This document shows positions 22,721 through 63,917 of a stretch of 64,000 bases of DNA, piece by piece. The notes beneath the pieces are model-generated. The model had not been told where the DNA came from. It saw only the letters and a list, made by a program, of their open reading frames with translations, and did no database searches. The position numbers and the translations under genes are program-made. The stretch's first letter is position 1, and every line of letters begins with the position of its first letter. The DNA is taken from NCBI GenBank assembly GCA_964016885.1, contig OZ024751.1, forward strand, positions 4,340,001 to 4,404,000. The letters are read 5' to 3'. This DNA is from Eledone cirrhosa (taxonomy: Eukaryota).

Positions 22721-22901
22721 TTTATTAGGGGAGGCATTCCAAACAGACCCTTCATTAGGCATGCTGACAAATATATTAAAAAGTTCTTTCCTCCAACAAT
22801 TTTTACCCTAAACAGAGGAGAGTTTCATATTGTCAAAAAGGGAGGTAAATCTTTAGTGGAGGAAATGTCAGCCTTAATTACATATGTAACTAGCAGTAAA
22901 G

Positions 22902-22917
22902 CCCGGCGTTGCTCGGG
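22902..22917 (-). terminator. Helitron 3' subterminal hairpin of the terminal unit
   Basis: GC-rich imperfect palindrome CCCGAGCAACGCCGGG, 8 nt upstream of the terminal CTAG on the minus strand. Confidence 0.85.
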
Positions 22918-23192
22918 GTCGCTCAGTAGCTGTGTTAAAGTTACAATGTTAAGTTTCTTTCTTGGCTTAAAAACTGTAGTGTCTACTGTGCAGACTTGCA
23001 TGTGGTGTTTTTGATTAATATTCCCTCAACCAACAATATGCCTTATGAAGTTAAGAAAACATAACGATAACCCGAATGTTATAACAAAAGAGGATGCTGG
23101 GGATAGAAACTGCACTGGTTATTTATTAACAAAGATCGAAAATGTAAACACTGCAACGCAGAGAAAAACATTAGCGTAACCAAATTATCAGT

Positions 23193-23322
23193 TATGTCTG
23201 TCTGCACGCCTATATCACCTCTCTGCACGACTGTCTGTCTGCACGCCTATATCACCTCTCTGCACGACTATCTGTCTGCACGCCTATATCACCTCTCTGC
23301 ACGACTGTCTATCTGCACGCCT
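23193..23322. repeat. internal VNTR of the Helitron unit (first copy), 37-bp period made of 21-bp and 16-bp modules
   Basis: GCCTATATCACCTCTCTGCAC and GACTGTCTGTCTGCAC modules, present in every unit in variable number. Confidence 0.92.
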
Positions 23323-26300
23323 AACGACGAAATATTTGCTTGTTTTACGTAGTCTTTAAATAGACTTGTTTTCAAGTAAAAATATTGTTTTAAAATGCTT
23401 TTAAATGGAAATGAAGCAAAACGGAAGCTTAGTGTTCGAACTGATGAATTTTGCGGGTCAATATTTTGCTGGCTCGACAACTGTCTGTTCGTGTATTGTG
23501 TTAATGTCATTTTAAACGCTGAGAAAGCCAGCGTAATTTTTTACGTAAGACGCTCAATGTAAACAGAACAAAGGGAAATAACTGATAACTTACGCTCAAA
23601 AATCGATACATTATATTCGATTTCGTCACATAGGGTGGGTCAATTTGAAATATTTTTTTCCGATGTCTTCGCTAGGACTCAATGTACAAGTATAGCAATT
23701 TCGGTGCAATTCCGTGAGAGATTCTAAGAGGAGATGTGTGCCAAAAATCGATAGACAGACAGACAACCACAGTTTTATATATATATAGAAGCAGTAAAGC
23801 CCGGCGTTGCTCGGGGTCGCTCAGTAGCTGTGTTAAAGTTACAATGTTAAGTTTCTTTCTTGGCTTAAAAACTGTAGTGTCTACTGTGCAGACTTGCATG
23901 TGGTGTTTTTGATTAATATTCCCTCAACCAACAATATGCCTTATGAAGTTAAGAAAACATAACGATAACCCGAATGTTATAACAAAAGAGGATGCTGGGG
24001 ATAGAAACTGCACTGGTTATTTATTAACAAAGATCGAAAATGTAAACACTGCAACACAGAGAAAAACATTAGCGTAACCAAATTATCAGTTATGTCTGTC
24101 TGCACGCCTATATCACCTCTCTGCACGACTATCTGTCTGCACGCCTATATCACCTCTCTGCACGACTGTCTGTCTGCACGCCTATATCACCTCTCTGCAC
24201 GACTATGTGTCTGCACGCGTATATCACCTCTCTGCACGCCTAATGACGAAATATTTGCTTGTTTTACGTAGTCTTTAAATAGACTTGTTTTCAAGTAAAA
24301 ATATTGTTTTAAAATGCTTTTAAATGGAAATGAAGCAAAACGGAAGCTTAGTGTTCGAACTGATGAATTTTGCAGGTCAATATTTTGCTGGCTCGACAAC
24401 TGTCTGTTCGTGTATTGTGTTAATGTCATTTTAAACGCTGAGAAAGCCAGCGTAATTTTTTACGTAAGACGCTCAATGTAAACAGAACAAAGGGAAATAA
24501 CTGATAACTTACGCTCAAAAATCGATACATTATATTCGATTTCGTCACATAGGGTGGGTCAATTTGAAATTTTTTTTTCCGATGTCTTCGCTAGGGCTCA
24601 ATGTACAAGTATAGCAATTTCGGTGCAATTCCGTGAGAGATTCTAAGAGTAGATGTGTGCCAAAAATCGATAGACAGACAACCACAGTTTTATATATATA
24701 TAGAAGCAGTAAAGCCCGGCGTTGCTCGGGGTCGCTCAGTAGCTGTGTTAAAGTTACAATGTTAAGTTTCTTTCTTGGCTTAAAAACTGTAGTGTCTACT
24801 GTGCAGACTTGCATGTGGTGTTTTTGATTAATATTCCCTCAACCAACAATATGCCTTATGAAGTTAAGAAAACATAACGATAACCCGAATGTTATAACAA
24901 AAGAGGATGCTGGGGATAGAAACTGCACTGGTTATTTATTAACAAAGATCGAAAATGTAAACACTGCAACGCAGAGAAAAACATTAGCGTAACCAAATTA
25001 TCAGTTATGTCTGTCTGCACGCCTATATCACCTCTCTGCACGACTGTCTGTCTGCACGCCTATATCACCTCTCTGCACGACTGTCTGTCTGCACGCCTAT
25101 ATCACCTCTCTGCACGACTGTCTGTCTGCACGCCTATATCACCTCTCTGCACGACTGTCTGTCTGCACGCCTAACGACGAAATATTTGCTTGTTTTACGT
25201 AGTCTTTAAATAGACTTGTTTTCAAGTAAAAATATTGTTTTAAAATGCTTTTAAATGGAAATGAAGCAAAACGGAAGATTAGTGTTCGAACTGATGAATT
25301 TTTCAGGTCAATATTTTGCTGGCTCGACAACTGTCTGTTCGTGTATTGTGTTAATGTCATTTTAAACGCTGAGAAAGCCAGCGTAATTTTTTACGTAAGA
25401 CGCTCAATGTAAACAGAACAAAGGGAAATAACTGATAACTTACGCTCAAAAATCGATACATTATATTCGATTTCGTCACATAGGGTGGGTCAATTTGAAA
25501 TTTTTTTTTTCCGATGTCTTCGCTAGGGCTCAATGTACAAGTATAGCAATTTCGGTGCAATTCCGTGAGAGATTCTAAGAGTAGATGTGTGCCAAAAATC
25601 GATAGACAGACAACCACAGTTTTATATATATATAGAAGCAGTAAAGCCCGGCGTTGCTCGGGGTCGCTCAGTAGCTGTGTTAAAGTTACAATGTTAAGTT
25701 TCTTTCTTGGCTTAAAAACTGTAGTGTCTACTGTGCAGACTTGCATGTGGTGTTTTTGATTAATATTCCCTCAACCAACAATATGCCTTATGAAGTTAAG
25801 AAAACATAACGATAACCCGAATGTTATAACAAAAGAGGATGCTGGGGATAGAAACTGCACTGGTTATTTATTAACAAAGATCGAAAATGTAAACACTGCA
25901 ACGCAGAGAAAAACATTAGCGTAACCAAATTATCAGTTATGTCTGTCTGCACGCCTATATCACCTCTCTGCACGACTGTCTGTCTGCACGCCTATATCAC
26001 CTCTCTGCACGACTGTCTGTCTGCACGCCTATATCACCTCTCTGCACGACTGTCTGTCTGCACGCCTATATCACCTCTCTGCACGACTGTCTGTCTGCAC
26101 GCCTAACGACGAAATATTTGCTTGTTTTACGTAGTCTTTAAATAGACTTGTTTTCAAGTAAAAATATTGTTTTAAAATGCTTTTAAATGGAAATGAAGCA
26201 AAACGGAAGATTAGTGTTCGAACTGATGAATTTTTCAGGTCAATATTTTGCTGGCTCGACAACTGTCTGTTCGTGTATTGTGTTAATGTCATTTTAAACG

Positions 26301-29300
26301 CTGAGAAAGCCAGCGTAATTTTTTACGTAAGACGCTCAATGTAAACAGAACAAAGGGAAATAACTGATAACTTACGCTCAAAAATCGATACATTATATTC
26401 GATTTCGTCACATAGGGTGGGTCAATTTGAAATTTTTTTTTTCCGATGTCTTCGCTAGGGCTCAATGTACAAGTATAGCAATTTCGGTGCAATTCCGTGA
26501 GAGATTCTAAGAGTAGATGTGTGCCAAAAATCGATAGACAGACAACCACAGTTTTATATATATATAGAAGCAGTAAAGCCCGGCGTTGCTCGGGGTCGCT
26601 CAGTAGCTGTGTTAAAGTTACAATGTTAAGTTTCTTTCTTGGCTTAAAAACTGTAGTGTCTACTGTGCAGACTTGCATGTGGTGTTTTTGATTAATATTC
26701 CCTCAACCAACAATATGCCTTATGAAGTTAAGAAAACATAACGATAACCCGAATGTTATAACAAAAGAGGATGCTGGGGATAGAAACTGCACTGGTTATT
26801 TATTAACAAAGATCGAAAATGTAAACACTGCAACGCAGAGAAAAACATTAGCGTAACCAAATTATCAGTTATGTCTGTCTGCACGCCTATATCACCTCTC
26901 TGCACGACTGTCTGTCTGCACGCCTATATCACCTCTCTGCACGACTGTCTGTCTGCACGCCTATATCACCTCTCTGCACGACTGTCTGTCTGCACGCCTA
27001 ACGACGAAATATTTGCTTGTTTTACGTAGTCTTTAAATAGACTTGTTTTCAAGTAAAAATATTGTTTTAAAATGCTTTTAAATGGAAATGAAGCAAAACG
27101 GAAGATTAGTGTTCGAACTGATGAATTTTTCAGGTCAATATTTTGCTGGCTCGACAACTGTCTGTTCGTGTATTGTGTTAATGTCATTTTAAACGCTGAG
27201 AAAGCCAGCGTAATTTTTTACGTAAGACGCTCAATGTAAACAGAACAAAGGGAAATAACTGATAACTTACGCTCAAAAATCGATACATTATATTCGATTT
27301 CGTCACATAGGGTGGGTCAATTTGAAATTTTTTTTTTCCGATGTCTTCGCTAGGGCTCAATGTACAAGTATAGCAATTTCGGTGCAATTCCGTGAGAGAT
27401 TCTAAGAGTAGATGTGTGCCAAAAATCGATAGACAGACAACCACAGTTTTATATATATATAGAAGCAGTAAAGCCCGGCGTTGCTCGGGGTCGCTCAGTA
27501 GCTGTGTTAAAGTTACAATGTTAAGTTTCTTTCTTGGCTTAAAAACTGTAGTGTCTACTGTGCAGACTTGCATGTGGTGTTTTTGATTAATATTCCCTCA
27601 ACCAACAATATGCCTTATGAAGTTAAGAAAACATAACGATAACCCGAATGTTATAACAAAAGAGGATGCTGGGGATAGAAACTGCACTGGTTATTTATTA
27701 ACAAAGATCGAAAATGTAAACACTGCAACGCAGAGAAAAACATTAGCGTAACCAAATTATCAGTTATGTCTGTCTGCACGCCTATATCACCTCTCTGCAC
27801 GACTGTCTGTCTGCACGCCTATATCACCTCTCTGCACGACTGTCTGTCTGCACGCCTATATCACCTCTCTGCACGACTGTCTGTCTGCACGCCTATATCA
27901 CCTCTCTGCACGACTGTCTGTCTGCACGCCTAACGACGAAATATTTGCTTGTTTTACGTAGTCTTTAAATAGACTTGTTTTCAAGTAAAAATATTGTTTT
28001 AAAATGCTTTTAAATGGAAATGAAGCAAAACGGAAGATTAGTGTTCGAACTGATGAATTTTTCAGGTCAATATTTTGCTGGCTCGACAACTGTCTGTTCG
28101 TGTATTGTGTTAATGTCATTTTAAACGCTGAGAAAGCCAGCGTAATTTTTTACGTAAGACGCTCAATGTAAACAGAACAAAGGGAAATAACTGATAACTT
28201 ACGCTCAAAAATCGATACATTATATTCGATTTCGTCACGTAGGGTGGGTCAATTTGAAATTTTTTTTTTCCGATGTTTTCGCTAGGGCTCAATGTACAAG
28301 TATAGCAATTTCGGTGCAATTCCGTGAGAGATTCTAAGAGGAGATGTGTGCCAAAAATCGATAGACAGACAGACATCCACAGTTTTATATATATAGATAA
28401 GAAGCAGTAAAGCCCGGCGTTGCTCGGGGTCGCTCAGTAGCTGTGTTAAAGTTACAATGTTAAGTTTCTTTCTTGGCTTAAAAACTGTAGTGTCTACTGT
28501 GCAGACTTGCATGTGGTGTTTTTGATTAATATTCCCTCAACCAACAATATGCCTTATGAAGTTAAGAAAACATAACGATAACCCGAATGTTATAACAAAA
28601 GAGGATGCTGGGGATAGAAACTGCACTGGTTATTTATTAACAAAGATCGAAAATGTAAACACTGCAACGCAGAGAAAAACATTAGCGTAACCAAATTATC
28701 AGTTATGTCTGTCTGCACGCCTATATCACCTCTCTGCACGACTGTCTGTCTGCACGCCTATATCACCTCTCTGCACGACTGTCTGTCTGCACGCCTATAT
28801 CACCTCTCTGCACGACTGTCTGTCTGCACGCCTATATCACCTCTCTGCACAACTGTCTGTCTGCACGACTGTCTGTCTGCACGCCTAACGACGAAATATT
28901 TGCTTGTTTTACGTAGTCTTTAAATAGACTTGTTTTCAAGTAAAAATATTGTTTTAAAATGCTTTTAAATGGAAATGAAGCAAAACGGAAGCTTAGTGTT
29001 CGAACTGATGAATTTTGCGGGTCAATATTTTGCTGGCTCGACAACTGTCTGTTCGTGTATTGTGTTAATGTCATTTTAAACGCTGAGAAAGCCAGCGTAA
29101 TTTTTTACGTAAGACGCTCAATGTAAACAGAACAAAGGGAAATAACTGATAACTTACGCTCAAAAATCGATACATTATATTCGATTTCGTCACATAGGGT
29201 GGGTCAATTTGAAATATTTTTTTCCGATGTCTTCGCTAGGACTCAATGTACAAGTATAGCAATTTCGGTGCAATTCCGTGAGAGATTCTAAGAGGAGATG

Positions 29301-32300
29301 TGTGCCAAAAATCGATAGACAGACAACCACAGTTTTATAGATATAGAAGCTGTAAAGCCCGGCGTTGCTCGGGGTCGCTCAGTAGCTGTGTTAAAGTTAC
29401 AATGTTAAGTTTCTTTCTTGGCTTAAAAACTGTAGTGTCTACTGTGCAGACTTGCATGTGGTGTTTTTGATTAATATTCCCTCAACCAACAATATGCCTT
29501 ATGAAGTTAAGAAAACATAACGATAACCCGAATGTTATAACAAAAGAGGATGCTGGGGATAGAAACTGCACTGGTTATTTATTAACAAAGATCGAAAATG
29601 TAAACACTGCAACGCAGAGAAAAACATTACCGTAACCAAATTATCAGTTATGTCTGTCTGCACGCCTATATCACCTCTTTGCACGCCTATATCACCTCTC
29701 TGCACGACTGTCTGTCTGCACGCCTAACGACGAAATATTTGCTTGTTTTACGTAGTCTTTAAATAGACTTGTTTTCAAGTAAAAATATTGTTTTAAAATG
29801 ATTTTAAATGGAAATGAAGCGAAACGGAAGCTTAGTGTTCGAACTGATGAATTTTGCAGGTCAATATTTTGCTGGCTCGACAACTGTCTGTTCGTGTATT
29901 GTGTTAATGTCATTTTAAACGCTGAGAAAGCCAGCGTAATTTTTTACGTAAGACGCTCAATGTAAACAGAACAAAGGGAAATAACTGATAACTTACGCTC
30001 AAAAATCGATACATTATATTCGATTTCGTCACATAGGGTGGGTCAATTTGAAATATTTTTTTTCCGATGTCTTCGCTAGGACTCAATGTACAAGTATAGC
30101 AATTTCGGTGCAATTCCGTGAGAGATTCTAAGAGGAGATGTGTGCCAAAAATCGATAGACAGACAACCACAGTTTTATATATATAGAAGCTGTAAAGCCC
30201 GGCGTTGCTCGGGGTCGCTCAGTAGCTGTGTTAAAGTTACCATGTTAAGTTTCTTTCTTGGCTTAAAAACTGTAGTGTCTACTGTGCAGACTTGCATGTG
30301 GTGTTTTTGATTAATATTCCCTCAACCAACAATATGCCTTATGAAGTTAAGAAAACATAACGATAACCCGAATGTTATAACAAAAGAGGATGCTGGGGAT
30401 AGAAACTGCACTGGTTATTTATTAACAAAAATCGAAAATGTAAACACTGCAACGCAGAGAAAAACATTAGCGTAACCAAATTATCAGTTATGTTTGTCTG
30501 CACGCCTGTATCACCTCTCTGCACGACTGTCTGTCTGCACGCCTATATCACCTCTCTGCACGACTGTCTGTCTGCACGCCTATATCACCTCTCTGCACGA
30601 CTATCTGTCTGCACGCGTATATCACCTCTCTGCACGACTGTCTGTCTGCACGACTGTCTGTCTGCACGCCTAACGACGAAATATTTGCTTGTTTTACGTA
30701 GTCTTTAAATAGACTTGTTTTCAAGTAAAAATATTGTTTTAAAATGCTTTTAAATGGAAATGAAGCAAAACGGAAGCATAGTGTTCGAACTGATGAATTT
30801 TGCAGGTCAATATTTTGCTGGCTCGACAACTGTCTGTTCGTGTATTGTGTTAATGTCATTTTAAACGCTGAGAAAGCCAGCGTAATTTTTTACGTAAGAC
30901 GCTCAATGTAAACAGAACAAAGGTAAATAACTGATAACTTACGCTCAAAAATCGATGCATTATATTCGATTTCGTCACATAGGGTGGGTCAATTTGAAAT
31001 TTCTTTTTTCCGATGTCTTCGCTAGGGCTCAATGTACAAGTATAGCAATTTCGGTGCAATTCCGTGAGAGATTCTAAGAGGAGATGTGTGCCAAAAATCG
31101 ATAGACAGACAGACAACCACAGTTTTATATATATAGAAGCAGTAAAGCCCGGCGTTGCTCGGGGTCGCTCAGTAGCTGTGTTAAAGTTACAATGTTAAGT
31201 TTCTTTTTTGGCTTCAAAACTGTAGTGTCTACTGTGCAGACTTGCATGTGGTGTTTTTGATTAATATTCCCTCAACCAACAATATGCCTTATGAAGTTAA
31301 GAAAACATAACGATAACCCGAATGTTATAACAAAAGAGGATGCTGGGGATAGAAACTGCACTGGTTATTTATTAACAAAGATCGAAAATGTAAACACTGC
31401 AACGCAGAGAAAAACATTAGCGTAACCAAATTATCAGTTATGTCTGTCTGCACGCCTATATCACCTCTCTGCACGACTGTCTGTCTGCACGCCTATATCA
31501 CCTCTCTGCACGACTGTCTGTCTGCACGCCTATATCACCTCTCTGCACGACTATCTGTCTGCACGCGTATATCACCTCTCTGCACGACTGTCTGTCTGCA
31601 CGACTGTCTGTCTGCACGCCTAACGACGAAATATTTGCTTGTTTTACGTAGTCTTTAAATAGACTTGTTTTCAAGTAAAAATATTGTTTTAAAATGCTTT
31701 TAAATGGAAATGAAGCAAAACGGAAGCTTAGTGTTCGAACTGATGAATTTTGCAGGTCAATATTTTGCTGGCTCGACAACTGTCTGTTCGTGTATTGTGT
31801 TAATGTCATTTTAAACGCTGAGAAAGCCAGCGTAATTTTTTACGTAAGACGCTCAATGTAAACAGAACAAAGGGAAATAACTGATAACTTACGCTCAAAA
31901 ATCGATACATTATATTCGATTTCGTCACATAGGGTGGGTCAATTTGAAATTTTTTTTTTCCGATGTCTTCGCTAGGGCTCAATGTACAAGTATAGCAATT
32001 TCGGTGCAATTCCGTGAGAGATTCTAAGAGTAGATGTGTGCCAAAAATCGATAGACAGACAACCACAGTTTTATATATATATAGAAGCAGTAAAGCCCGG
32101 CGTTGCTCGGGGTCGCTCAGTAGCTGTGTTAAAGTTACAATGTTAAGTTTCTTTCTTGGCTTAAAAACTGTAGTGTCTACTGTGCAGACTTGCATGTGGT
32201 GTTTTTGATTAATATTCCCTCAACCAACAATATGCCTTATGAAGTTAAGAAAACATAACGATAACCCGAATGTTATAACAAAAGAGGATGCTGGGGATAG

Positions 32301-35300
32301 AAACTGCACTGGTTATTTATTAACAAAGATCGAAAATGTAAACACTGCAACGCAGAGAAAAACATTAGCGTAACCAAATTATCAGTTATGTCTGTCTGCA
32401 CGCCTATATCACCTCTCTGCACGACTGTCTGTCTGCACGCCTATATCACCTCTCTGCACGACTGTCTGTCTGCACGCCTATATCACCTCTCTGCACGACT
32501 GTCTGTCTGCACGCCTATATCACCTCTCTGCACGACTGTCTGTCTGCACGCCTAACGACGAAATATTTGCTTGTTTTACGTAGTCTTTAAATAGACTTGT
32601 TTTCAAGTAAAAATATTGTTTTAAAATGCTTTTAAATGGAAATGAAGCAAAACGGAAGATTAGTGTTCGAACTGATGAATTTTTCAGGTCAATATTTTGC
32701 TGGCTCGACAACTGTCTGTTCGTGTATTGTGTTAATGTCATTTTAAACGCTGAGAAAGCCAGCGTAATTTTTTACGTAAGACGCTCAATGTAAACAGAAC
32801 AAAGGGAAATAACTGATAACTTACGCTCAAAAATCGATACATTATATTCGATTTCGTCACATAGGGTGGGTCAATTTGAAATTTTTTTTTTCCGATGTCT
32901 TCGCTAGGGCTCAATGTACAAGTATAGCAATTTCGGTGCAATTCCGTGAGAGATTCTAAGAGTAGATGTGTGCCAAAAATCGATAGACAGACAACCACAG
33001 TTTTATATATATATAGAAGCAGTAAAGCCCGGCGTTGCTCGGGGTCGCTCAGTAGCTGTGTTAAAGTTACAATGTTAAGTTTCTTTCTTGGCTTAAAAAC
33101 TGTAGTGTCTACTGTGCAGACTTGCATGTGGTGTTTTTGATTAATATTCCCTCAACCAACAATATGCCTTATGAAGTTAAGAAAACATAACGATAACCCG
33201 AATGTTATAACAAAAGAGGATGCTGGGGATAGAAACTGCACTGGTTATTTATTAACAAAGATCGAAAATGTAAACACTGCAACGCAGAGAAAAACATTAG
33301 CGTAACCAAATTATCAGTTATGTCTGTCTGCACGCCTATATCACCTCTCTGCACGACTGTCTGTCTGCACGCCTATATCACCTCTCTGCACGACTGTCTG
33401 TCTGCACGCCTATATCACCTCTCTGCACGACTGTCTGTCTGCACGCCTATATCACCTCTCTGCACGACTGTCTGTCTGCACGCCTAACGACGAAATATTT
33501 GCTTGTTTTACGTAGTCTTTAAATAGACTTGTTTTCAAGTAAAAATATTGTTTTAAAATGCTTTTAAATGGAAATGAAGCAAAACGGAAGATTAGTGTTC
33601 GAACTGATGAATTTTTCAGGTCAATATTTTGCTGGCTCGACAACTGTCTGTTCGTGTATTGTGTTAATGTCATTTTAAACGCTGAGAAAGCCAGCGTAAT
33701 TTTTTACGTAAGACGCTCAATGTAAACAGAACAAAGGGAAATAACTGATAACTTACGCTCAAAAATCGATACATTATATTCGATTTCGTCACGTAGGGTG
33801 GGTCAATTTGAAATTTTTTTTTTCCGATGTTTTCGCTAGGGCTCAATGTACAAGTATAGCAATTTCGGTGCAATTCCGTGAGAGATTCTAAGAGGAGATG
33901 TGTGCCAAAAATCGATAGACAGACAGACATCCACAGTTTTATATATATAGATAAGAAGCAGTAAAGCCCGGCGTTGCTCGGGGTCGCTCAGTAGCTGTGT
34001 TAAAGTTACAATGTTAAGTTTCTTTCTTGGCTTAAAAACTGTAGTGTCTACTGTGCAGACTTGCATGTGGTGTTTTTGATTAATATTCCCTCAACCAACA
34101 ATATGCCTTATGAAGTTAAGAAAACATAACGATAACCCGAATGTTATAACAAAAGAGGATGCTGGGGATAGAAACTGCACTGGTTATTTATTAACAAAGA
34201 TCGAAAATGTAAACACTGCAACGCAGAGAAAAACATTAGCGTAACCAAATTATCAGTTATGTCTGTCTGCACGCCTATATCACCTCTCTGCACGACTGTC
34301 TGTCTGCACGCCTATATCACCTCTCTGCACGACTGTCTGTCTGCACGCCTATATCACCTCTCTGCACGACTGTCTGTCTGCACGCCTATATCACCTCTCT
34401 GCACAACTGTCTGTCTGCACGACTGTCTGTCTGCACGCCTAACGACGAAATATTTGCTTGTTTTACGTAGTCTTTAAATAGACTTGTTTTCAAGTAAAAA
34501 TATTGTTTTAAAATGCTTTTAAATGGAAATGAAGCAAAACGGAAGCTTAGTGTTCGAACTGATGAATTTTGCGGGTCAATATTTTGCTGGCTCGACAACT
34601 GTCTGTTCGTGTATTGTGTTAATGTCATTTTAAACGCTGAGAAAGCCAGCGTAATTTTTTACGTAAGACGCTCAATGTAAACAGAACAAAGGGAAATAAC
34701 TGATAACTTACGCTCAAAAATCGATACATTATATTCGATTTCGTCACATAGGGTGGGTCAATTTGAAATATTTTTTTCCGATGTCTTCGCTAGGACTCAA
34801 TGTACAAGTATAGCAATTTCGGTGCAATTCCGTGAGAGATTCTAAGAGGAGATGTGTGCCAAAAATCGATAGACAGACAACCACAGTTTTATAGATATAG
34901 AAGCTGTAAAGCCCGGCGTTGCTCGGGGTCGCTCAGTAGCTGTGTTAAAGTTACAATGTTAAGTTTCTTTCTTGGCTTAAAAACTGTAGTGTCTACTGTG
35001 CAGACTTGCATGTGGTGTTTTTGATTAATATTCCCTCAACCAACAATATGCCTTATGAAGTTAAGAAAACATAACGATAACCCGAATGTTATAACAAAAG
35101 AGGATGCTGGGGATAGAAACTGCACTGGTTATTTATTAACAAAGATCGAAAATGTAAACACTGCAACGCAGAGAAAAACATTACCGTAACCAAATTATCA
35201 GTTATGTCTGTCTGCACGCCTATATCACCTCTTTGCACGCCTATATCACCTCTCTGCACGACTGTCTGTCTGCACGCCTAACGACGAAATATTTGCTTGT

Positions 35301-50300: not shown

Positions 50301-53300
50301 ACAAAGATCGAAAATGTAAACACTGCAACGCAGAGAAAAACATTAGCGTAACCAAATTATCAGTTATGTCTGTCTGCACGCCTATATCACCTCTCTACAC
50401 GACTGTCTGTCTGCACGCCTATATCACCTCTTTGCACGCCTATATCACCTCTCTGCACGACTGTCTGTCTGCACGCCTATATCACCTCTCTGCACGATTG
50501 TCTGTCTGCACGCCTATATCACCTCTCTGCACAACTGTCTGTCTGCACGACTGTCTGTCTGCACGCCTAACGACGAAATATTTGCTTGTTTTACGTAGTC
50601 TTTAAATAGACTTGTTTTCACGTAAAAATATTGTTCTAAAATGCTTTTAAATGGAAATGAAGCAAAACGGAAGCTTAGTGTTCGAACTGATGAATTTTGC
50701 AGGTCAATATTTTGCTGGCTCGACAACTGTCTGTTCGTGTATCGTGTTAATGTCATTTTAAACGCTGAGAAAGCCAGCGTAATCTTTTACGTAAGACGCT
50801 CAATGTAAACAGAACAAAGGGAAATAACTGATAACCTACGCTCAAAAATCGATACATTATATTCGATTTCGTCACATAGGGTGGGTCAATTTGAAATTTA
50901 TTTTTTCCGATGTCTTCGCTACGACTCAATGTACAAGTATAGCAATTTCGGTGCAATTCCGTGAGAGATTCTAAGAGGAGATGTGTGCCAAAAATCGATA
51001 GACAGACAGACAACCACAGTTTTATATATATAGAAGCAGTAAAGCTCGGCGTTGCTCTCGGTCGCTCAGTAGCTGTGTTAAAGTTACAATGTTAAGTTTC
51101 TTTCTTGGCTTAAAAACTGTAGTGTCTACTGTGCAGACTTGCATGTGGTGTTTTTGATTAATATTCCCTCAACCAACAATATGCCTTATGAAGTTAAGAA
51201 AACATAACGATAACCCGAATGTTATAACAAAAGAGGATGCTGGGGATAGAAACTGCACTGGTTATTTATTAACATAGATCGAAAATGTAAACACTGCAAC
51301 GCAGAGAAAAACATTACCGTAACCAAATTATCAGTTATGTCTGTCTGCACGCCTATATCACCTCTTTGCACGCCTATATCACCTCTCTGCACGACTGTCT
51401 GTCTGCACGCCTATATCACCTCTCTGCACGCCTATATCACCTCTCTGCACGACTGTCTGTCTGCACGCCTATATCACCTCTCTGCACGACTGTCTGTCTG
51501 CAGGACTGTCTGTCTGCACGAATGTCTGTCTGCACGCCTAACGACGAAATATTTGCTGGTTTTACGTAGTCTTTAAATAGACTTGTTTTCAAGTAAAAAT
51601 ATTGTTTTAAAATGCTTTTAAATGGAAATGAAGCCAAACGGAAGATTAGTGTTCGAACTGATGAATTTTGCAGGTCAATATTTTGCTGGCTCGACAACTG
51701 TCTGTTCGTGTATTGTGTTAATGTCATTTTAAACGCTGAGAAAGCCAGCGTAATTTTTTACGTAAGACGCTCAATGTAAACAGAACAAAGGGAAATAACT
51801 GATAACTTACGCTCAAAAATCGATACATTATATTCGATTTCGTCACATAGGGTGGGTCAATTTGAAATTTCTTTTTTCCGATGTCTTTGCTAGGACTCAA
51901 TGTACAAGTATAGCAATTTCGGTGCAATTCCGTGAGAGATTCTAAGAGGAGATGTGTGCCAAAAATCGATAGACAGACAGACAACCACAGTTTTATATAT
52001 ATAGAAGCAGTAAAGCCCGGCGTTGCTCGGGGTCGCTCAGTAGCTGTGTTAAAGTTACAATGTTAAGTTTCTTTTTTGGCTTAAAAACTGTAGTGTCTAC
52101 TGTGCAGACTTGCATGTGGTGTTTTTGATTAATATTCCCTCAACCAACAATATGCCTTATGAAGTTAAGAAAACATAACGATAACCCGAATGTTATAACA
52201 AAAGAGGATGCTGGGGATAGAAACTGCACTGGTTATTTATTAACAAAGATCGAAAATGTAAACACTGCAACGCAGAGAAAAACATTAGCGTAACCAAATT
52301 ATCAGTTATGTCTGTCTGCACGCCTATATCACCTCTCTGCACGACTGTCTGTCTCCACGCCTATATCACCTCTCTGCACGACTGTCTGTCTGCACGCCTA
52401 TATCACCTCTCTGCACGACTGTCTGTCTGCACGCCTATATCACCTCTCTGCACAACTGTCTGTCTGCACGACTGTCTGTCTGCACGCCTAACGACGAAAT
52501 ATTTGCTTGTTTTACGTAGTCTTTAAATAGACTTGTTTTCAAGTAAAAATATTGTTTTAAAATGCTTTTAAATGGAAATGAAGCCAAACGGAAGATTAGT
52601 GTTCGAACTGATGAATTTTGCAGGTCAATATTTTGCTGGCTCGACAACTGTCTGTTCGTGTATTGTGTTAATGTCATTTTAAACGCTGAGAAAGCCAGCG
52701 TATTTTTTTACGTAAGACGCTCAATGTAAACAGAACAAAGGGAAATAACTGATAACTTACGCTCAAAAATCGATACATTATATTCGATTTCGTCACATAG
52801 GGTGGGTCAATTTGAAATTTTTTTTTTCAGATGTCTTCGTTAGGACTCAATGTACAAGTATAGCAATTTCGGTGCAATTCCGTGAGAGATTCTAAGAGGA
52901 GATGTGTGCCAAAAATCGATAGACAGACAGACAACCACAGTTTTATATATATAGAAGCAGTAAAGCTCGGCGTTGCTCGGGGTCGCTCAGTAGCTGTGTT
53001 AAAGTTACAATGTTAAGTTTCTTTCTTGGCTTAAAAACTGTAGTGTCTACTGTGCAGACTTGCATGTGGTGTTTTTGATTACTATTCCCTCAACCAACAA
53101 TATGCCTTATGAAGTTAAGAAAACATAACGATAACCCGAATGTTATAACAAAAGAGGATGCTGGGGATAGAAACTGCACTGGTTATTTATTAACAAAGAT
53201 CGAAAATGTAAACTCTGCAACGCAGAGAAAAACATTAGCGTAACCAAATTATCAGTTATGTCTGTCTGCACGCCTATATCACCTCTTTTCACGCCTATAT

Positions 53301-56300
53301 CACCTCTCTGCACGACTGTCTGTCTGCACGCCTATATCACCTCTTTGCACGCCTATATCACCTCTCTGCACGACTGTCTGTCTGCACGCCTATATCACCT
53401 CTCTGCACGACTGTCTGTCTGCACGCCTATATCACCTCTCTGCACGACTATCGGTCTGCACGCGTATATCACCTCTCTGCACGACTGTCTGTCTGCACGC
53501 CTAACGACGAAATATTTGCTTGTTTTACGTAGTCTTTAAATAGACTTGTTTTCAAGTAAAAATATTGTTTTAAAATGCTTTTAAATGGAAATGAAGCAAA
53601 ACGGATGCTTAGTGTTCGAACTGATGAATTTTGCAGGTCAATATTTTGCTGGCTCGACAACTGTCTGTTCGTGTATTGCGTTTAATGTCATTTTAAACGC
53701 TGAGAAAGCCAGCGTAATTTTTTACGTAAGAGGCTCAATGTAAATAGAACAAAGGGAAATAACTGATAACTTACGCTCAAAAATCGATACATTATATTCG
53801 ATTTCGTCACATAGGGTGGGTCAATTTGAAATTTTTTTTTTCCGATGTCTTCGCTAGGGCTCAATGTACAAGTATAGCAATTTCGGTGCAATTCCGTGAG
53901 AGATTCTAAGAGGAGATGTGTGCCAAAAATCGATAGACAGACAGACAACCACAGTTTTATATATATAGAAGCAGTAAAGCCCGGCGTTGCTCGGGGTCGC
54001 TCAGTAGCTGTGTTAAAGTTACAATGTTAAGTTTCATTCTTGGCTTAAAAACTGTAGTGTCTACTGTGCAGACTTGCATGTGGTGTTTTTGATTAATATT
54101 CCCTCAACCAACAATATGCCTTATGAAGTTAAGAAAACATAACGATAACCCGAATGTTATAACAAAAGAGGATGCTGGGGATAGAAACTGCACTGGTTAT
54201 TTATTAACAAAGATCGAAAATGTAAACACTGCAACGCAGAGAAAAACATTAGCGTAACCAAATTATCAGTTATGTCTGTCTGCACGCCTATATCACCTCT
54301 CTGCACGCCTATATCACCTCTTTGCACGCCTATATCACCTCTCTGCACGACTGTCTGTCTGCACGCCTATATCACCTCTCTGCACGATTGTCTGTCTGCA
54401 CGCGTATATCACCTCTCTGCACGACTGTCTGTCTGCACGCCTAACGAACGAAATATTTGCTGGTTTTACGTAGTCTTTAAATAGACTTGTTTTCAAGTAA
54501 AAATATTGTTTTAAAATGCTTTTAAATGGAAATGAAGCAAAACGGAAGCTTAGTGTTCGAACTGATGAATTTTGCAGGTCAATATTTTGCTGGCTCGACA
54601 ACTGTCTGTTCGTGTATTGTGTTAATGTCATTTTAAACGCTGAGAAAGCCAGCGTAATTTTTTACGTAAGACGCTCAATGTAAACAGAACAAAGGGAAAT
54701 AACTGATAACTTACGCTCAAAAATCGATACATTATATTCGATTTCGTCACATAGGGTGGGTCAATTTGAAATTTTTTTTTTCCGATGTCTTCGCTTGGGC
54801 TCAATGTACAAGTATAGCAATTTCGGTGCAATTCCGTGAGAGATTCTAAGAGGAGATGTATGCCAAAAATCGATAGACAGACAGACAACCACAGTCTTAT
54901 ATATATAGAAGCAGTAAAGCCCGGCGTTGCTCGGGGTCGTTCAGTAGCTGTGTTAAAGTTACAATGTTAAGTTTCTTTCTTGGCTTAAAAACTGTAGTGT
55001 CTACTGTGCAGACTTGCATGTGGTGTTTTTGATTAATATTCCCTCAACCAACAATATGCCTTATGAAGTTAAGAAAACATAACGATAACCCGAATGTTAT
55101 AAGAAAAGAGGATGCTGGGGATAGAAACTGCACTGGTTATTTATTAACAAAGATCGAAAATGTAAACACTGCAACGCAGAGAAAAACATTAGCGTAACCA
55201 AATTATCAGTTATGTCTGTCTGCACGCCTATATCACCTCTCTGCACGACTGTCTGTCTGCACGCCTATATCACCTCTCTGCACGACTATCTGTTTGCACG
55301 CGTATATCACCTCTCTGCACGACTGTCTGTCTGCACGCCTAACGACGAAATATTTGCCTGTTTTACGTAGTCTTTAAATAGACTTGTTTTCAAGTAAAAA
55401 TATTGTTTTAAAATGCTTTTAAATGGAAATGAAGCGAAACGGAAGCTTAGTGTTCGAACTGATGAATTTTGCAGGTTAATATTTTGCTGGCTCGACAACT
55501 GTCTGTTCGTGTATTGTGTTAATGTCATTTTAAACGCTGAGAAAGCCAGCGTAATTTTTTACGTAAGACGCTCAATGTAAACAGAACAAAGGGAAATAAC
55601 TGATAACTTACGCTCAAAAATCGATACATTATATTCGATTTCGTCACATAGGGTGGGTCAATTTGAAATTTTCTTTTTCCGATGTCTTCGCTAGGGCTCA
55701 ATGTACAAGTATAGCAATTTCGGTGCAATTCCGTGAGAGATTCTAAGAGGAGATGTGTGCCAAAAATCGATAGACAGACAGACAACCACAGTTTTATATA
55801 TATAGAAGCAGTAAAGCCCGGCGTTGCTCGGAGTCGCTCAGTAGCTGTGTTAAAGTTACAATGTTAAGTTTCTTTCTTGGCTTAAAAACTGTAGTGTCTA
55901 CTGTGCAGACTTGCATGTGGTGTTTTTGATTAATATTCCCTCAACCAACAATATGCCTTATGAAGTTAAGAAAACATAACGATAACCCGAATATTATAAC
56001 AAAAGAGGATGCTGGGGATAGAAACTGCACTGGTTATTTATTAACAAAGATCGAAAATGTAAACACTGCAACGCAAAGAAAAACATTAGCGTAACCAAAT
56101 TATCAGTTATGTCTGTCTGCACGCCTATATCACCTCTCTGCACGACTGTCTGTCTGCACGCCTATATCACCTCTCTGCACGACTGTCTGTCTGCACGCCT
56201 ATATCACCTCTCTGCACGACTGTCTGTCTGCACGACTGTCTGTCTGCACGCCTAACGACGAAATATTTGCTTGTTTTACGTAGTATTTAAATAGACTTGT

Positions 56301-59300
56301 TTTCAAGTAAAAATATTGTTTTAAAATGCTTTTAAATGGAAATGAATCAAAACGGAAGCTTAGTGTTCGAACTGATGAATTTTGCAGGTCAATATTTTGC
56401 TGGCTCGACAACTGTCTGTTCGTGTATCGTGTTAATGTCATTTTAAACGCTGAGAAAGCCAGCGTAATCTTTTACGTAAGACGCTCAATGTAAACAGAAC
56501 AAAGGGAAATAACTGATAACCTACGCTCAAAAATCGATACATTATATTCGATCTGGTCACATAGGGTGGGTCAATTTGAAATTTTTTTTTTCCGATGTCT
56601 TCGCTAGGACTCAATGTTCAAGTATAGCAATTTCGGTGCAATTCCGTGAGAGATTCTAAGAGGAGATGTGTGCCAAAAATCGATAGACAGACAGACAACC
56701 ACAGTTTTATATATATAGAAGCAGTAAAGCTCGGCGTTGCTCGGGGTCGCTCAGTAGCTGTGTTAAAGTAACAATGTTAAGTTTCTCTTTTGGATTAAAA
56801 ACTGTAGTGTCTACTGTGCAGACTTGCATGTGGTGTTTTTGATTAATATTCCCTCAACCAACAATATGCCTTATGAAGTTAAGAAAACATAACGATAACC
56901 CGAATGTTATAACAAAAGAGGATGCTGGGGATAGAAACTGCACTGGTTATTTATTAACAAAGATCGAAAATGTAAACACTGCAACGCAGAGAAAAACATT
57001 AGCGTAACCAAATTATCAGTTATGTCTGTCTGCACGCCTATATCACCTCTCTGCACGACTGTCTGTCTGCACGCCTATATCACCTCTCTGCACGATTGTC
57101 TGTCTGCACGCGTATATCACCTCTCTGCACGACTGTCTGTCTGCACGCCTAACGACGAAATATTTGCTTGTTTTACGTAGTCTTTAAATAGACTTGTTTT
57201 CAAGTAAAAATATTGTTTTAAAATGCTTTTAAATGGAAATGAAGCAAAACGGAAGCTTAGTGTTCGAACTGATGAATTTTGCAGGTCAATATTTTGCTGG
57301 CTCGACAACTGTCTGTTCGTGTATTGTGTTAATGTCATTTTAAACGCTGAGAAAGCCAGCGTAATTTTTTACGTAAGACGCTCAATGTAAACAGAACAAA
57401 GGGAAATAACTGATAACTTACGCTCAAAAATCGATACATTATATTCGATTTCGTCACATAGGGTGGGTCAATTTGAAATTTTTTTTCCGATGTCTTCGCT
57501 AGGGCTCAATGTACAAGTATAGCAATTTCGGTGCAATTCCGTGAGAGATTCTAAGAGGAGATGTGTGCCAAAAATCGATAGACAGACAGACAACCACAGT
57601 TTTATATATATAGAAGCAGTAAAGCCCGGCGTTGCTCGGGGTCGCTCAGTAGCTGTGTTAAAGTTACAATGTTAAGTTTCTTTCTTGGCTTAAAAACTGT
57701 AGTGTCTACTGTGCAGACTTGCATGTGGTGTTTTTGATTAATATTCCCTCAACCAACAATATGCCTTATGAAGTTAAGAAAACATAACGATAACCCGAAT
57801 GTTATAACAAAAGAGGATGCTGGGGATAGAAACTGCACTGGTTATTTATTGACAAAGATCGAAAATGTAAACACTGCAACGCAAAGAAAAACATTAGCGT
57901 AACCAAATTATCAGTTATGTCTGTCTGCACGCCTATATCACCTCTCTGCACGACTGTCTGTCTGCACGCCTATATCACCTCTCTGCACGACTGTCTGTCT
58001 GCACGCCTATATCACCTCTCTGCACGATTGTCTGTCTGCACGCGTATATCACCTCTCTGCACGACTGTCTGTCTGCACGCCTAACGACGAAATATTTGCT
58101 TGTTTTACGTAGTCTTTAAATAGACTTGTTTTCAAGTAAAAATATTGTTTTAAAATGCTTTTAAATGGAAATGAAGCAAAACGGAAGCTTAGTGTTCGAA
58201 CTGATGAATTTTGCAGGTCAATATTTTGCTGGCTCGACAACTGTCTGTTCGTGTATTGTGTTAATGTCATTTTAAACGCTGAGAAAGCCAGCGTAATTTT
58301 TTACGTAAGACGCTCAATGTAAACAGAACAAAGGGAAATAACTGATAACTTACGCTCAAAAATCGATACATTATATTCGATTTCGTCACATAGGGTGGGT
58401 CAATTTGAAATTTTTTTTCCGATGTCTTCGCTAGGGCTCAATGTACAAGTATAGCAATTTCGGTGCAATTCCGTGAGAGATTCTAAGAGGAGATGTGTGC
58501 CAAAAATCGATAGACAAACAGACAACCACAGTTTTATATATATATAGAAGCAGTAAAGCCCGGCGTTGCTCGGGGTCGCTCAGTAGCTGTGTTAAAGTTA
58601 CAATGTTAAGTTTCTTTCTTGGCTTAAAAACTGTAGTGTCTACTGTGCAGACTTGCATGTGGTGTTTTTGATTAATATTCCTTCAACCAACAATATGCCT
58701 TATGAAGTTAAGAAAACATAACGATAACCCGAATGTTATAACAAAAGAGGATGCTGGGGATAGAAACTGCACTGGTTATTTATTAACAAAGATCGAAAAT
58801 GTAAACACTGCAACGCAGAGAAAAATATTAGCGTAACCAAATTATAAGTTATGTCTGTCTGCACGCCTATATCACCTCTCTGCACGCCTATATCACCTCT
58901 CTGCACGACTGTCTGTCTGCACGCCTATATCACCTCTCTGCACGACTGTCTGTCTGCACGCCTATATCACCTCTCTGCACGACTATCCGTCTGCACGCGT
59001 ATATCACCTCTCTGCACGACTGTCTGTCTGCACGCGTATATCACCTCTCTGCACGATGTCTGTCTGCACGACTGTCTGTCTGCACGCCTAACGACGAAAT
59101 ATTTGCTTGTTTTACGTAGTCTTTAAATAGACTTGTTTTCAAGTAAAAATATTGTTTTAAAATGCTTTTAAATGGAAATGAAGCAAAACGGAAGCTTAGT
59201 GTTCGAACTGATGAATTTTGCAGGTCAATATTTTGCTGGCTCGACAACTGTCTGTTCGTGTATTGTGTTAATGTCATTTTAAACGCTGAGAAAGCCAGCG

Positions 59301-62300
59301 TAATTTTTTACGTAAGACGCTCAATGTAAACAGAACAAAGGGAAATAACTGATAACTTACGCTCAAAAATCGATACATTATATTCGATTTCGTCACATAG
59401 GGTGGGTCAATTTGAAATTTTTTTTTTCCGATGTCTTCGCTTGGGCTCAATGTACAAGTATAGCAATTTCGGTGCAATTCCGTGAGAGATTCTAAGAGGA
59501 GATGTATGCCAAAAATCGATAGACAGACAGACAACCACAGTTTTATATATATAGAAGCAGTAAAGCCCGGCGTTGCTCGGGGTCGCTCAGTAGCTGTGTT
59601 AAAGTTACAATGTTAAGTTTCTCTTTTGGATTAAAAACTTTAGTGTCTACTGTGCAGACTTGCATGTGGTGTTTTTGATTAATATTCCCTCAACCAACAA
59701 TATGCCCTATGAAGTTAAGAAAACATAACGATAACCCGAATGTTATAACAAAAGAGGATGCTGGGGATAGAAACTGCACTGGTTATTTATTAACAAAGAT
59801 CGAAAATGTAAACACTGCAACGCAGAGAAAAACATTAGCGTAACCAAATTATCAGTTATGTCTGTCTGCACGCCTATATCACCTCTCTGCACGACTGTCT
59901 GTCTGCACGCCTATATCACCTCTCTGCACGACTGTCTGTCTGCACGCCTATATCACCTCTCTGCACGACTGTCTGTCTGCACGACTGTCTGTCTGCACGC
60001 CTAACGACGAAATATTTGCTTGTTTTACGTAGTATTTAAATAGACTTGTTTTCAAGTAAAAATATTGTTTTAAAATGCTTTTAAATGGAAATGAAACAAA
60101 ACGGAAGCTTAGTGTTCGAACTGATGAATTTTGCAGGTCAATATTTTGCTGGCTCGACAACTGTCTGTTCGTGTATTGTGTTAATGTCATTTTAAACGCT
60201 GAGAAAGCCAGCGTAATTTTTTACGTAAGACGCTCAATGTAAACAGAACAAAGGGAAATAACTGATAACTTACGCTCAAAAATCGATACATTATATTCGA
60301 TTTCGTCACATAGGGTGGGTCAATTTGAAATTTTTTTTTCCGATGTCTTCGCTAGGGCTCAATGTACAAGTATAGCAATTTCGGTGCAATTCCGTGAGAG
60401 ATTCTAAGAGGAGATGTGTGCCAAAAATCGATAGACAGACAGACAACCACAGTTTTATATATATAGAACCAGTAAAGCCCGGCGTTTCTCGGGGTCGCTC
60501 AGTAGCTGTGTTAAAGTTACAATGTTAAGTTTCTTTTTTGGATTAAAAACTTTAGTGTCTACTGTGCAGACTTGCATGTGGTGTTTTTGATTAATATTCC
60601 CTCAACCAACAATATGCCTTATGAAGTTAAGAAAACATAACGATAACCCGAATGTTATAACAAAAGAGGATGCTGGGGATAGAAACTGCACTGGTTATTT
60701 ATTAACAAAGATCGAAAATGTAAACACTGCAACGCAGAGAAAAACATTAGCGTAACCAAATTATCAGTTATGTCTGTCTGCACGCCTATATCACCTCTCT
60801 GCACGACTGTCTGTCTGCACGCCTAACGACGAAATATTTGCTTGTTTTACGTAGTCTTTAAATAGACTTGTTTTCAAGTAAAAATATTGTTTTAAAATGC
60901 TTTTAAATGGAAATGAAGCAAAACGGAAGCTTAGTGTTCGAACTGATGAATTTTGCAGGTCAATATTTTGCTGGCTCGACAACTGTCTGTTCGTGTATTG
61001 TGTTAATGTCATTTTAAACGCTGAGAAAGCCAGCGTAATTTTTTACGTAAGACGCTCAATGTAAACAGAACAAAGGGAAATAACTGATAACTTACGCTCA
61101 AAAATCGATACATTATATTCGATTTCGTCACATAGGGTGGGTCAAATTGAAATTTTTTTTCCGATGTCTTCGCTAGGGCTCAATGTACAAGTATAGCAAT
61201 TTCGGTGCAATTCCGTGAGAGATTCTAAGAGGAGATGTGTGCCAAAAATCGATAGACAGACAGACAACCACAGTTTTATATATATATAGAAGCAGTAAAG
61301 CCCGGCGTTGCTCGGGGTCGCTCAGTAGCTGTGTTAAAGTTACAATGTTAAGTTTCTTTCTTGGCTTAAAAACTGTAGTGTCTACTGTGCAGACTTGCAT
61401 GTGGTGTTTTTGATTAATATTCCTTCAACCAACAATATGCCTTATGAAGTTAAGAAAACATAACGATAACCCGAATGTTATAACAAAAGAGGATGCTGGG
61501 GATAGAAACTGCACTGGTTATTTATTAACAAAGATCGAAAATGTAAACACTGCAACGCAGAGAAAAATATTAGCGTAACCAAATTATAAGTTATGTCTGT
61601 CTGCACGCCTATATCACCTCTCTGCACGCCTATATCACCTCTCTGCACGACTGTCTGTCTGCACGCCTATATCACCTCTCTGCACGACTGTCTGTCTGCA
61701 CGCCTATATCACCTCTCTGCACGACTATCCGTCTGCACGCGTATATCACCTCTCTGCACGACTGTCTGTCTGCACGCGTATATCACCTCTCTGCACGATG
61801 TCTGTCTGCACGACTGTCTGTCTGCACGCCTAACGACGAAATATTTGCTTGTTTTACGTAGTCTTTAAATAGACTTGTTTTCAAGTAAAAATATTGTTTT
61901 AAAATGCTTTTAAATGGAAATGAAGCAAAACGGAAGCTTAGTGTTCGAACTGATGAATTTTGCAGGTCAATATTTTGCTGGCTCGACAACTGTCTGTTCG
62001 TGTATTGTGTTAATGTCATTTTAAACGCTGAGAAAGCCAGCGTAATTTTTTACGTAAGACGCTCAATGTAAACAGAACAAAGGGAAATAACTGATAACTT
62101 ACGCTCAAAAATCGATACATTATATTCGATTTCGTCACATAGGGTGGGTCAATTTGAAATTTTTTTTTTCCGATGTCTTCGCTTGGGCTCAATGTGCAAG
62201 TATAGCAATTTCGGTGCAATTCCGTGAGAGATTCTAAGAGGAGATGTATGCCAAAAATCGATAGACAGACAGACAACCACAGTTTTATATATATAGAAGC

Positions 62301-63297
62301 AGTAAAGCCCGGCGTTGCTCGGGGTCGTTCAGTAGCTGTGTTAAAGTTACAATGTTAAGTTTCTTTCTTGGCTTAAAAACTGTAGTGTCTACTGTGCAGA
62401 CTTGCATGTGGTGTTTTTGATTAATATTCCCTCAACCAACAATATGCCTTATGAAGTTAAGAAAACATAACGATAACCCGAATGTTATAACAAAAGAGGA
62501 TGCTGGGGATAGAAACTGCACTGGTTATTTATTAACAAAGATCGAAAATGTAAACACTGCAACGCAGAGAAAAACATTAGCGTAACCAAATTATCAGTTA
62601 TGTCTGTCTGCACGCTTATATCACCTCTTTGCACGCCTATATCACCTCTTTGCACGCCTATATCACCTCTCTGCACGACTGTCTGTCTGCACGCCTATAT
62701 CACCTCTCTGCACGACTGTCTGTCTGCACGCCTATATCACCTCTCTGCACGACTGTCTGTCTGCACGCGTATATCACCTCTCTGCACGATGTCTGTCTGC
62801 ACGACTGTCTGTCTGCACGCCTAACGACGAAATATTTGCTTGTTTTACGTAGTCTTTAAATAGACTTGTTTTCAAGTAAAAATATTGTTTTAAAATGCTT
62901 TTAAATGGAAATGAAGCAAAACGGAAGCTTAGTGTTCGAACTGATGAATTTTGCAGGTCAATATTTTGCTGGCTCGACAACTGTCTGTTCGTGTATTGTG
63001 TTAATGTCATTTTAAACGCTGAGAAAGCCAGCGTAATTTTTTACGTAAGACGCTCAATGTAAACAGAACAAAGGGAAATAACTGATAACTTACGCTCAAA
63101 AATCGATACATTATATTCGATTTCGTCACATAGGGTGGGTCAATTTGAAATTTTTTTTCCCGATGTCTTCGCTAGGGCTCAATGTACAAGTATAGCAATT
63201 TCGGTGCAATTCCGTGAGAGATTCTAAGAGGAGATGTGTGCCAAAAATCGATAGACAGACAGACAACCACAGTTTTATATATATAGATTAGACACAC

Positions 63298-63917
63298 ATA
63301 GAAGTGGTTGATAGCTTTTGCAATCTAGGTGACTTAATTAGCAGTGGAGGAGGCTGCTCTGACAGATGAATAGCTAGAATAAGGATAGGATGGAAAAAGT
63401 TTAGAGAGCTACTGCAACAGTTGACCACAAAAGGTTTCTTTCTCTGTACAAAAGGACAACTGTATGTCACATGTGGGTGATGTGCAATGATGTATGGTAA
63501 CGAAACAAGGGCTGTGACTGATAAGATATGTAGACTGGAGAGAAATGAAGCAACCATGCTTTGTAGGATATGTTGTGTAAGGTAGAGCTTGGACAAGTTC
63601 AAGAAGAAGCTGGGTTTAAGAGTGATCTGAAGTGGTGTGTAAGAGAGAAGACTGTGTTTGTATGGATATGTGATGCACATGGATAACGACCACTGGGTGA
63701 TGAAGTGCCAGGAAATCCCAGTAGAAGGAAGCCATAGTAGAGGTAGACCAAGAAAGACCTGGACAGAGGCTGTGTGAACTGACTTCAAATAACTGACTCT
63801 CACAGAGGACATGACAAAGGAACACGTGTTGAAAGATGCCATGTTGAGAAGGACCTGTCCAACCAAGCAAACATGTAAAACAGACATAAAGACAGTGATG
63901 ATGTTGATGACGATGAC
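63298..63917 (+). mobile_element. degenerate RTE LINE 3' fragment, paralogous to 1-232
   Basis: IEVVDSFCNLGDLISSGGGCS, GWKKFRELL and GRPRKTW motifs with stops, and a (GAT)n tail. Confidence 0.85.

Follow-up and report, generated by a model that had tools for sequence, protein, structure and literature searches.

A tandem array of 43 Helitron units in Eledone cirrhosa with a single intact 3′ terminus

Plant Helitron arrays in which numerous 5′ ends accompany a single 3′ end, composed of several to hundreds of units, have been described across 27 genomes (Xiong 2016, as reported in the review PMC12628747). Head-to-tail Helitrons are also known from bats (Pritham and Feschotte 2007, as cited in PMC2267711) and from maize, where insertion at an AT formed by a host A and the T of a resident element was proposed (Du et al. 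2008, PMC2267711). FoHeli elements of Fusarium carry multiple 5′ termini and one 3′ terminus, for which self-insertion and read-through were put forward (PMC5148889); Helitron-derived arrays occur in a cnidarian (PMC11934779), and imperfect Helitron circles have been reported in maize (PMC10095026). A related outcome is documented for hobo and Bari1 in Drosophila, where expansion of a dimer gives an array with an identical deletion at each junction (McGurk and Barbash 2018, PMC5932611). Here, an array from the cephalopod Eledone cirrhosa is described. It lies in a stretch of 64,000 nucleotides (assembly GCA_964016885.1, contig OZ024751.1, positions 4,340,001 to 4,404,000 of the forward strand), referred to below as the window, within which all coordinates are counted. 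The array consists of 43 units of a non-autonomous Helitron, and the final AG of the terminal CTAG is absent at every one of its internal junctions.

The array was delimited by motif scans, which found 43 3′-end motifs and 43 5′-end motifs within 40,398 bp. Its layout is given by the following features, a slash marking the point of cutting or joining:

22890..63287, minus strand: the whole array, 43 head-to-tail non-autonomous Helitron (HLE1-type) units of 823-1014 bp, with 1.4% mean pairwise divergence outside their minisatellite
22890..22893, minus strand: the sole intact 3′ terminus, CTAG, followed by a host T
23780..23800, minus strand: the first internal junction, CT/TC, cut between 23790 and 23789; 41 more like it extend up to 62298
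28390..28410, minus strand: a variant junction with five extra bases, found also near 33957 and 41423
63286..63288, minus strand: the outermost 5′ TC, preceded by a host A

Read on the minus strand, the outer 5′ end is ...TCTAA/TCTATATA and the outer 3′ end ...TTTACTGCTAG/TTACAT. The array as a whole is thus inserted at an A/T target (host A/TC on one side, CTAG/T on the other) without a target-site duplication. Against its 43 5′ ends there stands a single intact 3′ end: CTAG is found at none of the 42 internal junctions, and CTAG followed by T occurs once across the 40,398 bp. The tetranucleotide does occur within the body of 38 of the 43 units. The junctions fall into four classes, TGCT/TCTATATA (33), AGCT/TC (5), TGGT/TC (1), and TGCT/TCTTA-TCTATA with the five extra bases (3); these 42 joins are not independent observations. 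A preliminary description of this DNA, based on its letters alone, had reported 43 head-to-tail units with a 5′ TC, an A/T target and no target-site duplication, which the scans and end sequences bear out. It had also reported internal junctions short of AG and a single CTAG at the array terminus, and the alignment of all 42 junctions for which it called agrees in full.

In its head-to-tail order, repeated 5′ ends, and single 3′ terminus the array resembles those of plants, whose units, however, are truncated and decayed and have had their terminator removed by recombination (PMC12628747). Here they are full length but for two nucleotides, keep their hairpin, are diverged by only ~1.4%, and reside in an animal genome. 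With the bat and maize head-to-tail Helitrons it shares a 5′ TC set directly on the neighbor's 3′ end with no host A between them; those junctions are perfect CTAG/TC (PMC2267711), whereas here the AG is lost and the join amplified 42-fold. The same terminal deletion at every junction, unequal exchange, and higher-order repeats also characterize the hobo and Bari1 arrays, although these are terminal inverted repeat or non-long-terminal-repeat elements with target-site duplications, and the present one is a rolling-circle element lacking them (PMC5932611). Helraiser circles are comparable in transposase end-joining, frequent aberrant junctions, and read-through at a weak 3′ signal (PMC4778049, PMC5876387). 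Helraiser is, however, an experimental autonomous bat element, and the accessible parts of these two papers describe no 2-nt-short junction (PMC5876387) and no concatemers (PMC4778049). FoHeli elements have only the layout of many 5′ ends and one 3′ end in common with the array, being of Helitron2 type with a duplicated part typically shorter than 200 bp (PMC5148889). An octopus repeat annotation lists 178 Helitron families and, in its accessible portion, mentions no such array (PMC13282606); that of PMC4224331 holds no passage on tandem arrays. A literature search by title and abstract, outside which lay most subscription papers and supplements (including those of Xiong 2016, which may contain such cases), yielded no animal array of full-length Helitrons with a 2-nt-short junction.

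The repeated unit agrees with the definition of HLE1 elements (PMC11417382) in its 5′ TC in 43/43 units, its CTRR 3′ end (CTAG) in unit 1 and in the dispersed copies, and its insertion at A/T without target-site duplication; it also belongs to a dispersed multi-copy family, as public sequencing runs indicate. Assignment to Helitron2/Helentron (HLE2) was rejected, as the T/T target and short terminal inverted repeats of that class are not present: the target is A/T, and among 25 of 49 inverted pairs listed the only one near both unit ends is an 11-nt match of 91% lying 80 and 13 nt inside. Two internal features were located in unit 1:

22902..22917, minus strand: subterminal GC hairpin with a bulged 6-bp stem, located 12 nt before the 3′ terminus
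23195..23323, no strand assigned: internal 37-bp minisatellite

The minisatellite segment, 57-247 bp long across units, is the source of most of the variation in unit length. The 4-bp outer stem of the hairpin is perfect in 33/43 units and broken in 10/43. All ten lie in the older half of the array, among units 22-37 (43300-58550), and one change is common to seven of them that do not form a clade. The subterminal GC hairpin of the preliminary description stands as to its position, which is that expected for a Helitron; its stability does not set it apart, since the hairpin of unit 1 is weak (z -0.76) and 45 of 200 shuffles fold equally well. The element is non-coding and ~0.9 kb long; the longest stop-free stretch of unit 1 measures 83 amino acids, and no further pieces of the element were found elsewhere in the 64-kb window. 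It may resemble Lep1-type insect Helitrons.

The dispersed family was probed in public sequencing runs (six of 15 runs listed) with an 88-bp stretch spanning a junction as the query. This stretch matched 668 contigs in run X5 and 3,612 reads in run X14, most of which continue into unrelated flanks. Where the array has GA, dispersed 3′ ends read CT: in X14, C is found in 437/462 and T in 438/448 reads; in X5, CT accounts for 97% of depth; and in X13, dispersed CTAG ends are seen in 772/783 and 774/781 reads. These counts cover reads aligned past the terminus, and the depth of restriction-site-associated DNA (RAD) data is biased by locus. In RAD reads, moreover, those from a defective junction and those from a 5′ end are not separable (at most 10/448 at 52005). 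The loose ends behind the 5′ end start with T (44 contigs in X5 and 2,091 reads in X14, with X8 behaving likewise), and those before the 3′ end read A-CT (16 contigs in X5, 471 reads in X14). The element is hence an abundant non-autonomous Helitron1-type family with A/TC and CTAG/T ends, to which the 2-nt-short end is the exception. Termini, target site, and dispersed copies together support the identity first proposed for it, and monomers that normally ended in CT, which would have spoken against a defective join, are not what the runs contain. In X8, the A at 52005 that marks the defective junction makes up 0 of a depth of 259.5, an absence that is no evidence in a shallow run of unknown kind. 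X10, with two matching reads of 12.8 million, was uninformative, and record 2 of X1, which extends 4 bases past the junction, was not counted.

Joins between different elements were also encountered in these runs. In one 502-bp contig of X1 (depth 15.3), the family's 5′ TC directly abuts an intact CTAG end that belongs to another Helitron-like sequence. This partner has its own, stronger hairpin, and the two form a head-to-tail heterodimer in a different organism. Judging from this one contig, double insertion at the 5′ boundary appears to occur in these genomes. In X14, the 2,091 reads that extend beyond the 5′ end give a consensus similar to a diverged Helitron 3′ terminus (agreement 0.45). 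Related families may often be joined intact and head to tail in that organism, with the caveat that RAD depth is locus-biased.

How the array grew can be read from the differences between its units, which were aligned by parts with the minisatellite left out; the site and tree analyses further omit a GACA repeat that occupies the first 20 columns. Three segments are referred to below:

26872..38087, no strand assigned: an exact 5,662-bp six-unit block at an offset of 5,554, with 26872-32533 identical to 32426-38087
22890..42372, minus strand: units 1-20, a recently expanded half in which a few haplotypes recur and just 1 private substitution is present
42373..63287, minus strand: units 21-43, an older half with a star-like tree and 50 private substitutions

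The outermost arms differ from the internal consensus by one substitution in 428 columns (5′) and none in 307 (3′), as compared with internal means of 3.4 and 1.9, so that the founders were one template or two very young siblings. Exact repeats of at least 900 bp number 18, all at whole-unit offsets and none taking in unit 1, and seven sets of units are fully identical. The 5,662-bp block is a very recent in-register duplication. When informative sites were compared two by two in the four-gamete test, 48 of 820 combinations did not fit a single tree, a sign of exchange or conversion together with some homoplasy. The unequal distribution of private substitutions between the two halves (1 against 50) has a p of 1e-6, although the units are not independent; a single one across units 1-20 means that several duplications took place faster than one mutation. 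Distance does not rise significantly with position (rho 0.08, p 0.09). The youngest units lie on the 3′ side, which rules out that the array grew through successive additions at its 5′ end. CpG transitions make up three of 99 distinct substitutions despite 27 CpG sites per unit, which suggests little methylation-driven decay.

The array displays what expansion of a dimer by unequal exchange would leave behind, namely one identical junction in all units between canonical outer ends, in-register higher-order duplications, and recombinant units. It seems likely, on the evidence as a whole, that the 42 AG-less joins descend from one join, probably made by the transposase and afterwards multiplied, in all likelihood, by ordinary unequal recombination. 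The process would start from the observed situation of a monomer of the abundant A/TC...CTAG/T family sitting at an A/T site. A second, near-identical copy would then have been joined at the resident's own 5′ nick site, be it by insertion between the host A and the resident T, by strand transfer during replication of the resident, or by an imprecise circle recombining with it. The AG would have been lost in this founder join or just afterwards, while only one join existed. Finally, in-register unequal exchange and conversion, to which the pattern of repeats conforms, would have copied the join together with a body 41 more times; every join would thereby inherit the defect, and only the outer ends would stay canonical. 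A flaw acquired at the dimer stage passes to all later units, so that the 42 identical defects most likely represent one event, and the single junction type in 42/42 supports the amplified defective founder junction of the preliminary description. The precision of the join, which preserves the 5′ T and misses the 3′ terminus by two bases, argues for the transposase as its maker, given that a random duplication would hit the exact 5′ base and come within 2 nt of the 3′ end with a probability of about 4e-6 by a rough estimate. Both founder routes suggested earlier, self-insertion at A/T and an imprecise circle, are plausible and already in print (PMC2267711, PMC5876387). A defective circle holds no CTAG, however, and must therefore have joined an intact copy; a circle alone cannot give the array. 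Joining of the element's own ends purely through microhomology was ruled out by inspection, because the common TAG would give a different junction.

Some further details concern the joins themselves. The heptamer ATAGAAG, present in the right flank 10 nt beyond the array edge (63298-63304), is identical to the sequence across the internal junction. This may be coincidence or a vestige of the join's formation; a two-step founder route through it is conceivable but needs more steps. At the junctions near 28403, 33957, and 41423, the five extra bases place an A before TC and the adjoining units carry a 5′-end allele that is common in the dispersed family. Another copy may have given rise to these junctions, either through conversion or by inserting there. 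With one mismatch, the extra bases also match the five with which the right flank opens.

A further view of the junctions is provided by the short reads of X5, in which the array form is crossed by three contigs among the eight of 668 listed, none of them with the 31 letters on both sides required to count as bridging. Record 6 (48 bases, two inserted letters) has a depth of 117.8, record 7 (49 bases, one mismatch) of 82.1, and record 5 (60 bases, five inserted letters and one mismatch) of 23.6. For comparison, 31-mer unitigs were simulated from the window together with mock dispersed ends. Record 6 is an exact match to a simulated class of 12 junctions (48 bases, 30 left and 18 right), record 7 matches the left end of a class of 5-6 junctions, and record 5 comes within 3-4 bases of a class of three. 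Depth per window junction accordingly amounts to 9.8 (record 6), 14-16 (record 7), and 7.9 (record 5), as against 4-11 in long contigs that look single-locus, and could be explained by one array with no need for others. Two X5 contigs, compared by eye, join the left flank at 22777 to sequence matching 63318-63347 in 28 of 30 bases; the flanks therefore adjoin at an array-free relative locus, which is not the exact empty site. The flank pieces 22778-22889 and 63288-63317 are missing from that locus, and 22737-22839 is itself a repeat with a depth of 264.

Several observations weigh against growth from one founder join by recombination. Units of the older half form a star-like tree (15 of 28 inner branches open, four starred), as a one-step rolling-circle concatemer also predicts; homoplasy could account for part of the four-gamete failures; and the body haplotype of unit 1 equals that of units 7, 13, and 17, although none of those three ends in CTAG. 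The X5 figures, which derive from eight of 668 contigs, would also be compatible with junction depth in two-fold excess, and the sequence fits each of the routes to the founder join. The main rival accordingly is a one-step concatemer of the kind envisaged by Xiong, in which an unresolvable junction template is replicated repeatedly, some 25-30 units with one intact end integrate at A/T, and local duplication follows later. The star-like tree, outer arms equal to the consensus, and the precise placement of the whole array at A/T all fit it. About half of Helraiser circles have aberrant junctions (PMC5876387), and the same explanation has been given for the plant arrays of this layout (PMC12628747). 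Although the multiple 5′ ends and single 3′ end (43 versus 1) are as in the plant arrays, removal of the 3′ terminator from the repeated unit is not seen, only two nucleotides being lost and the stem being perfect in 33/43. An extra step is required to supply the terminal CTAG, and aberrant circles are depleted among replicated Helraiser circles, of which 94% are precise after DpnI (PMC5876387). Since the left half passed through several duplications within less than one mutation, stepwise exchange can also produce a star-like tree. One-step concatemerization is therefore considered rather unlikely, though it deserves to be kept in view.

The giant self-amplifying element of the preliminary description, in which the transposase starts at any internal TC, passes CT/TC, and runs to the single CTAG so that the array copies and spreads itself, fares worse and is regarded as very improbable. 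Every unit has kept its 5′ TC, and Helraiser needs only its 5′ end, with a read-through rate of ~12% that rises to at least 36% when the hairpin is missing (PMC4778049). Read-through products would, however, end in the CTAG of unit 1, and as no such end has been re-inserted at any of the 42 junctions, the giant element is without support. None of the 18 long exact repeats includes unit 1, the duplicated blocks are in register, and the X5 junction depth fits one array. The hairpin kept in 33/43 units and the internal CTAG in 38/43 speak in the same direction; Helraiser deprived of its end stopped at nearby CTTG, CTAC, or AATG, with 6-9% transposition efficiency (PMC4778049). No autonomous partner with matching ends was found here. 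A broader proposal holds that CT/TC is a start signal unable to stop, such that a slip of two bases yields runaway multimers extending up to CTAG, at least 25 units per burst, and seeds further arrays; this is improbable, if slightly less so than the self-copying element. Were it true, the locus would amount to a naturally occurring mutant in which termination is seen to depend on the terminal AG and not on the hairpin, and the transposase itself would have led directly from Helitron to satellite in an animal. Least probable of all is that the array or its copy number was created by the assembler. The exact 5,662-bp repeat could be a duplicated read path, no long read was seen to span the array, and X5 may be the source sample. 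Private substitutions nevertheless distinguish most units of the older half, the three junction variants exist as short-read contigs whose ends agree with simulated unitigs (fully in one case, on the left side in a second, and to within 3-4 bases in the third), and the X5 contigs that join the left flank to right-flank-like sequence represent an array-free relative locus. Doubt about the assembly is at most confined to the six-unit duplicate. The array is accordingly best regarded as a passive young macrosatellite and not as an active giant transposon.

Two features of the surroundings are not part of the array:

1221..2312, minus strand: a single C2H2 zinc-finger exon with 11 fingers
63289..63360, plus strand: in the right flank, a decayed reverse-transcriptase fragment of a long interspersed nuclear element (LINE), like the open reading frame at 15697

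A six-frame scan of the window found this one exon, 20.6 kb from the array, and one isolated C2H2 pattern match at 63894, so that the array cannot be said to lie inside a zinc-finger cluster, as had been supposed. An 80-bp tandem repeat just downstream of the exon (882-1082) looks like decayed finger repeats. The LINE fragment is presumably of RTE type, and relatives of the window's LINE piece carry PF00078. Decayed transposon open reading frames at 4993-6077, 7521-9430, 10489-12834, and 14957-16134 have the appearance of a piggyBac-like transposase, a hAT-like transposase, and two LINE reverse-transcriptase copies.

The ingredients invoked here, namely arrays with multiple 5′ ends and a single 3′ end, insertion at a host A and a resident TC, dimer expansion, and imprecise circles, are already published. 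Particular to this locus are full-length units that keep their hairpin and lose only two nucleotides. No new mechanism is demonstrated by the array, which exemplifies a known way for transposons to become satellite DNA. It constitutes, however, an unusually clean and young record of the passage from transposon to macrosatellite, in which host ends, founder junction, and block duplications are all readable, and it provides a usable test case for whether Helitron arrays derive from rolling-circle concatemers or from dimers expanded by recombination.

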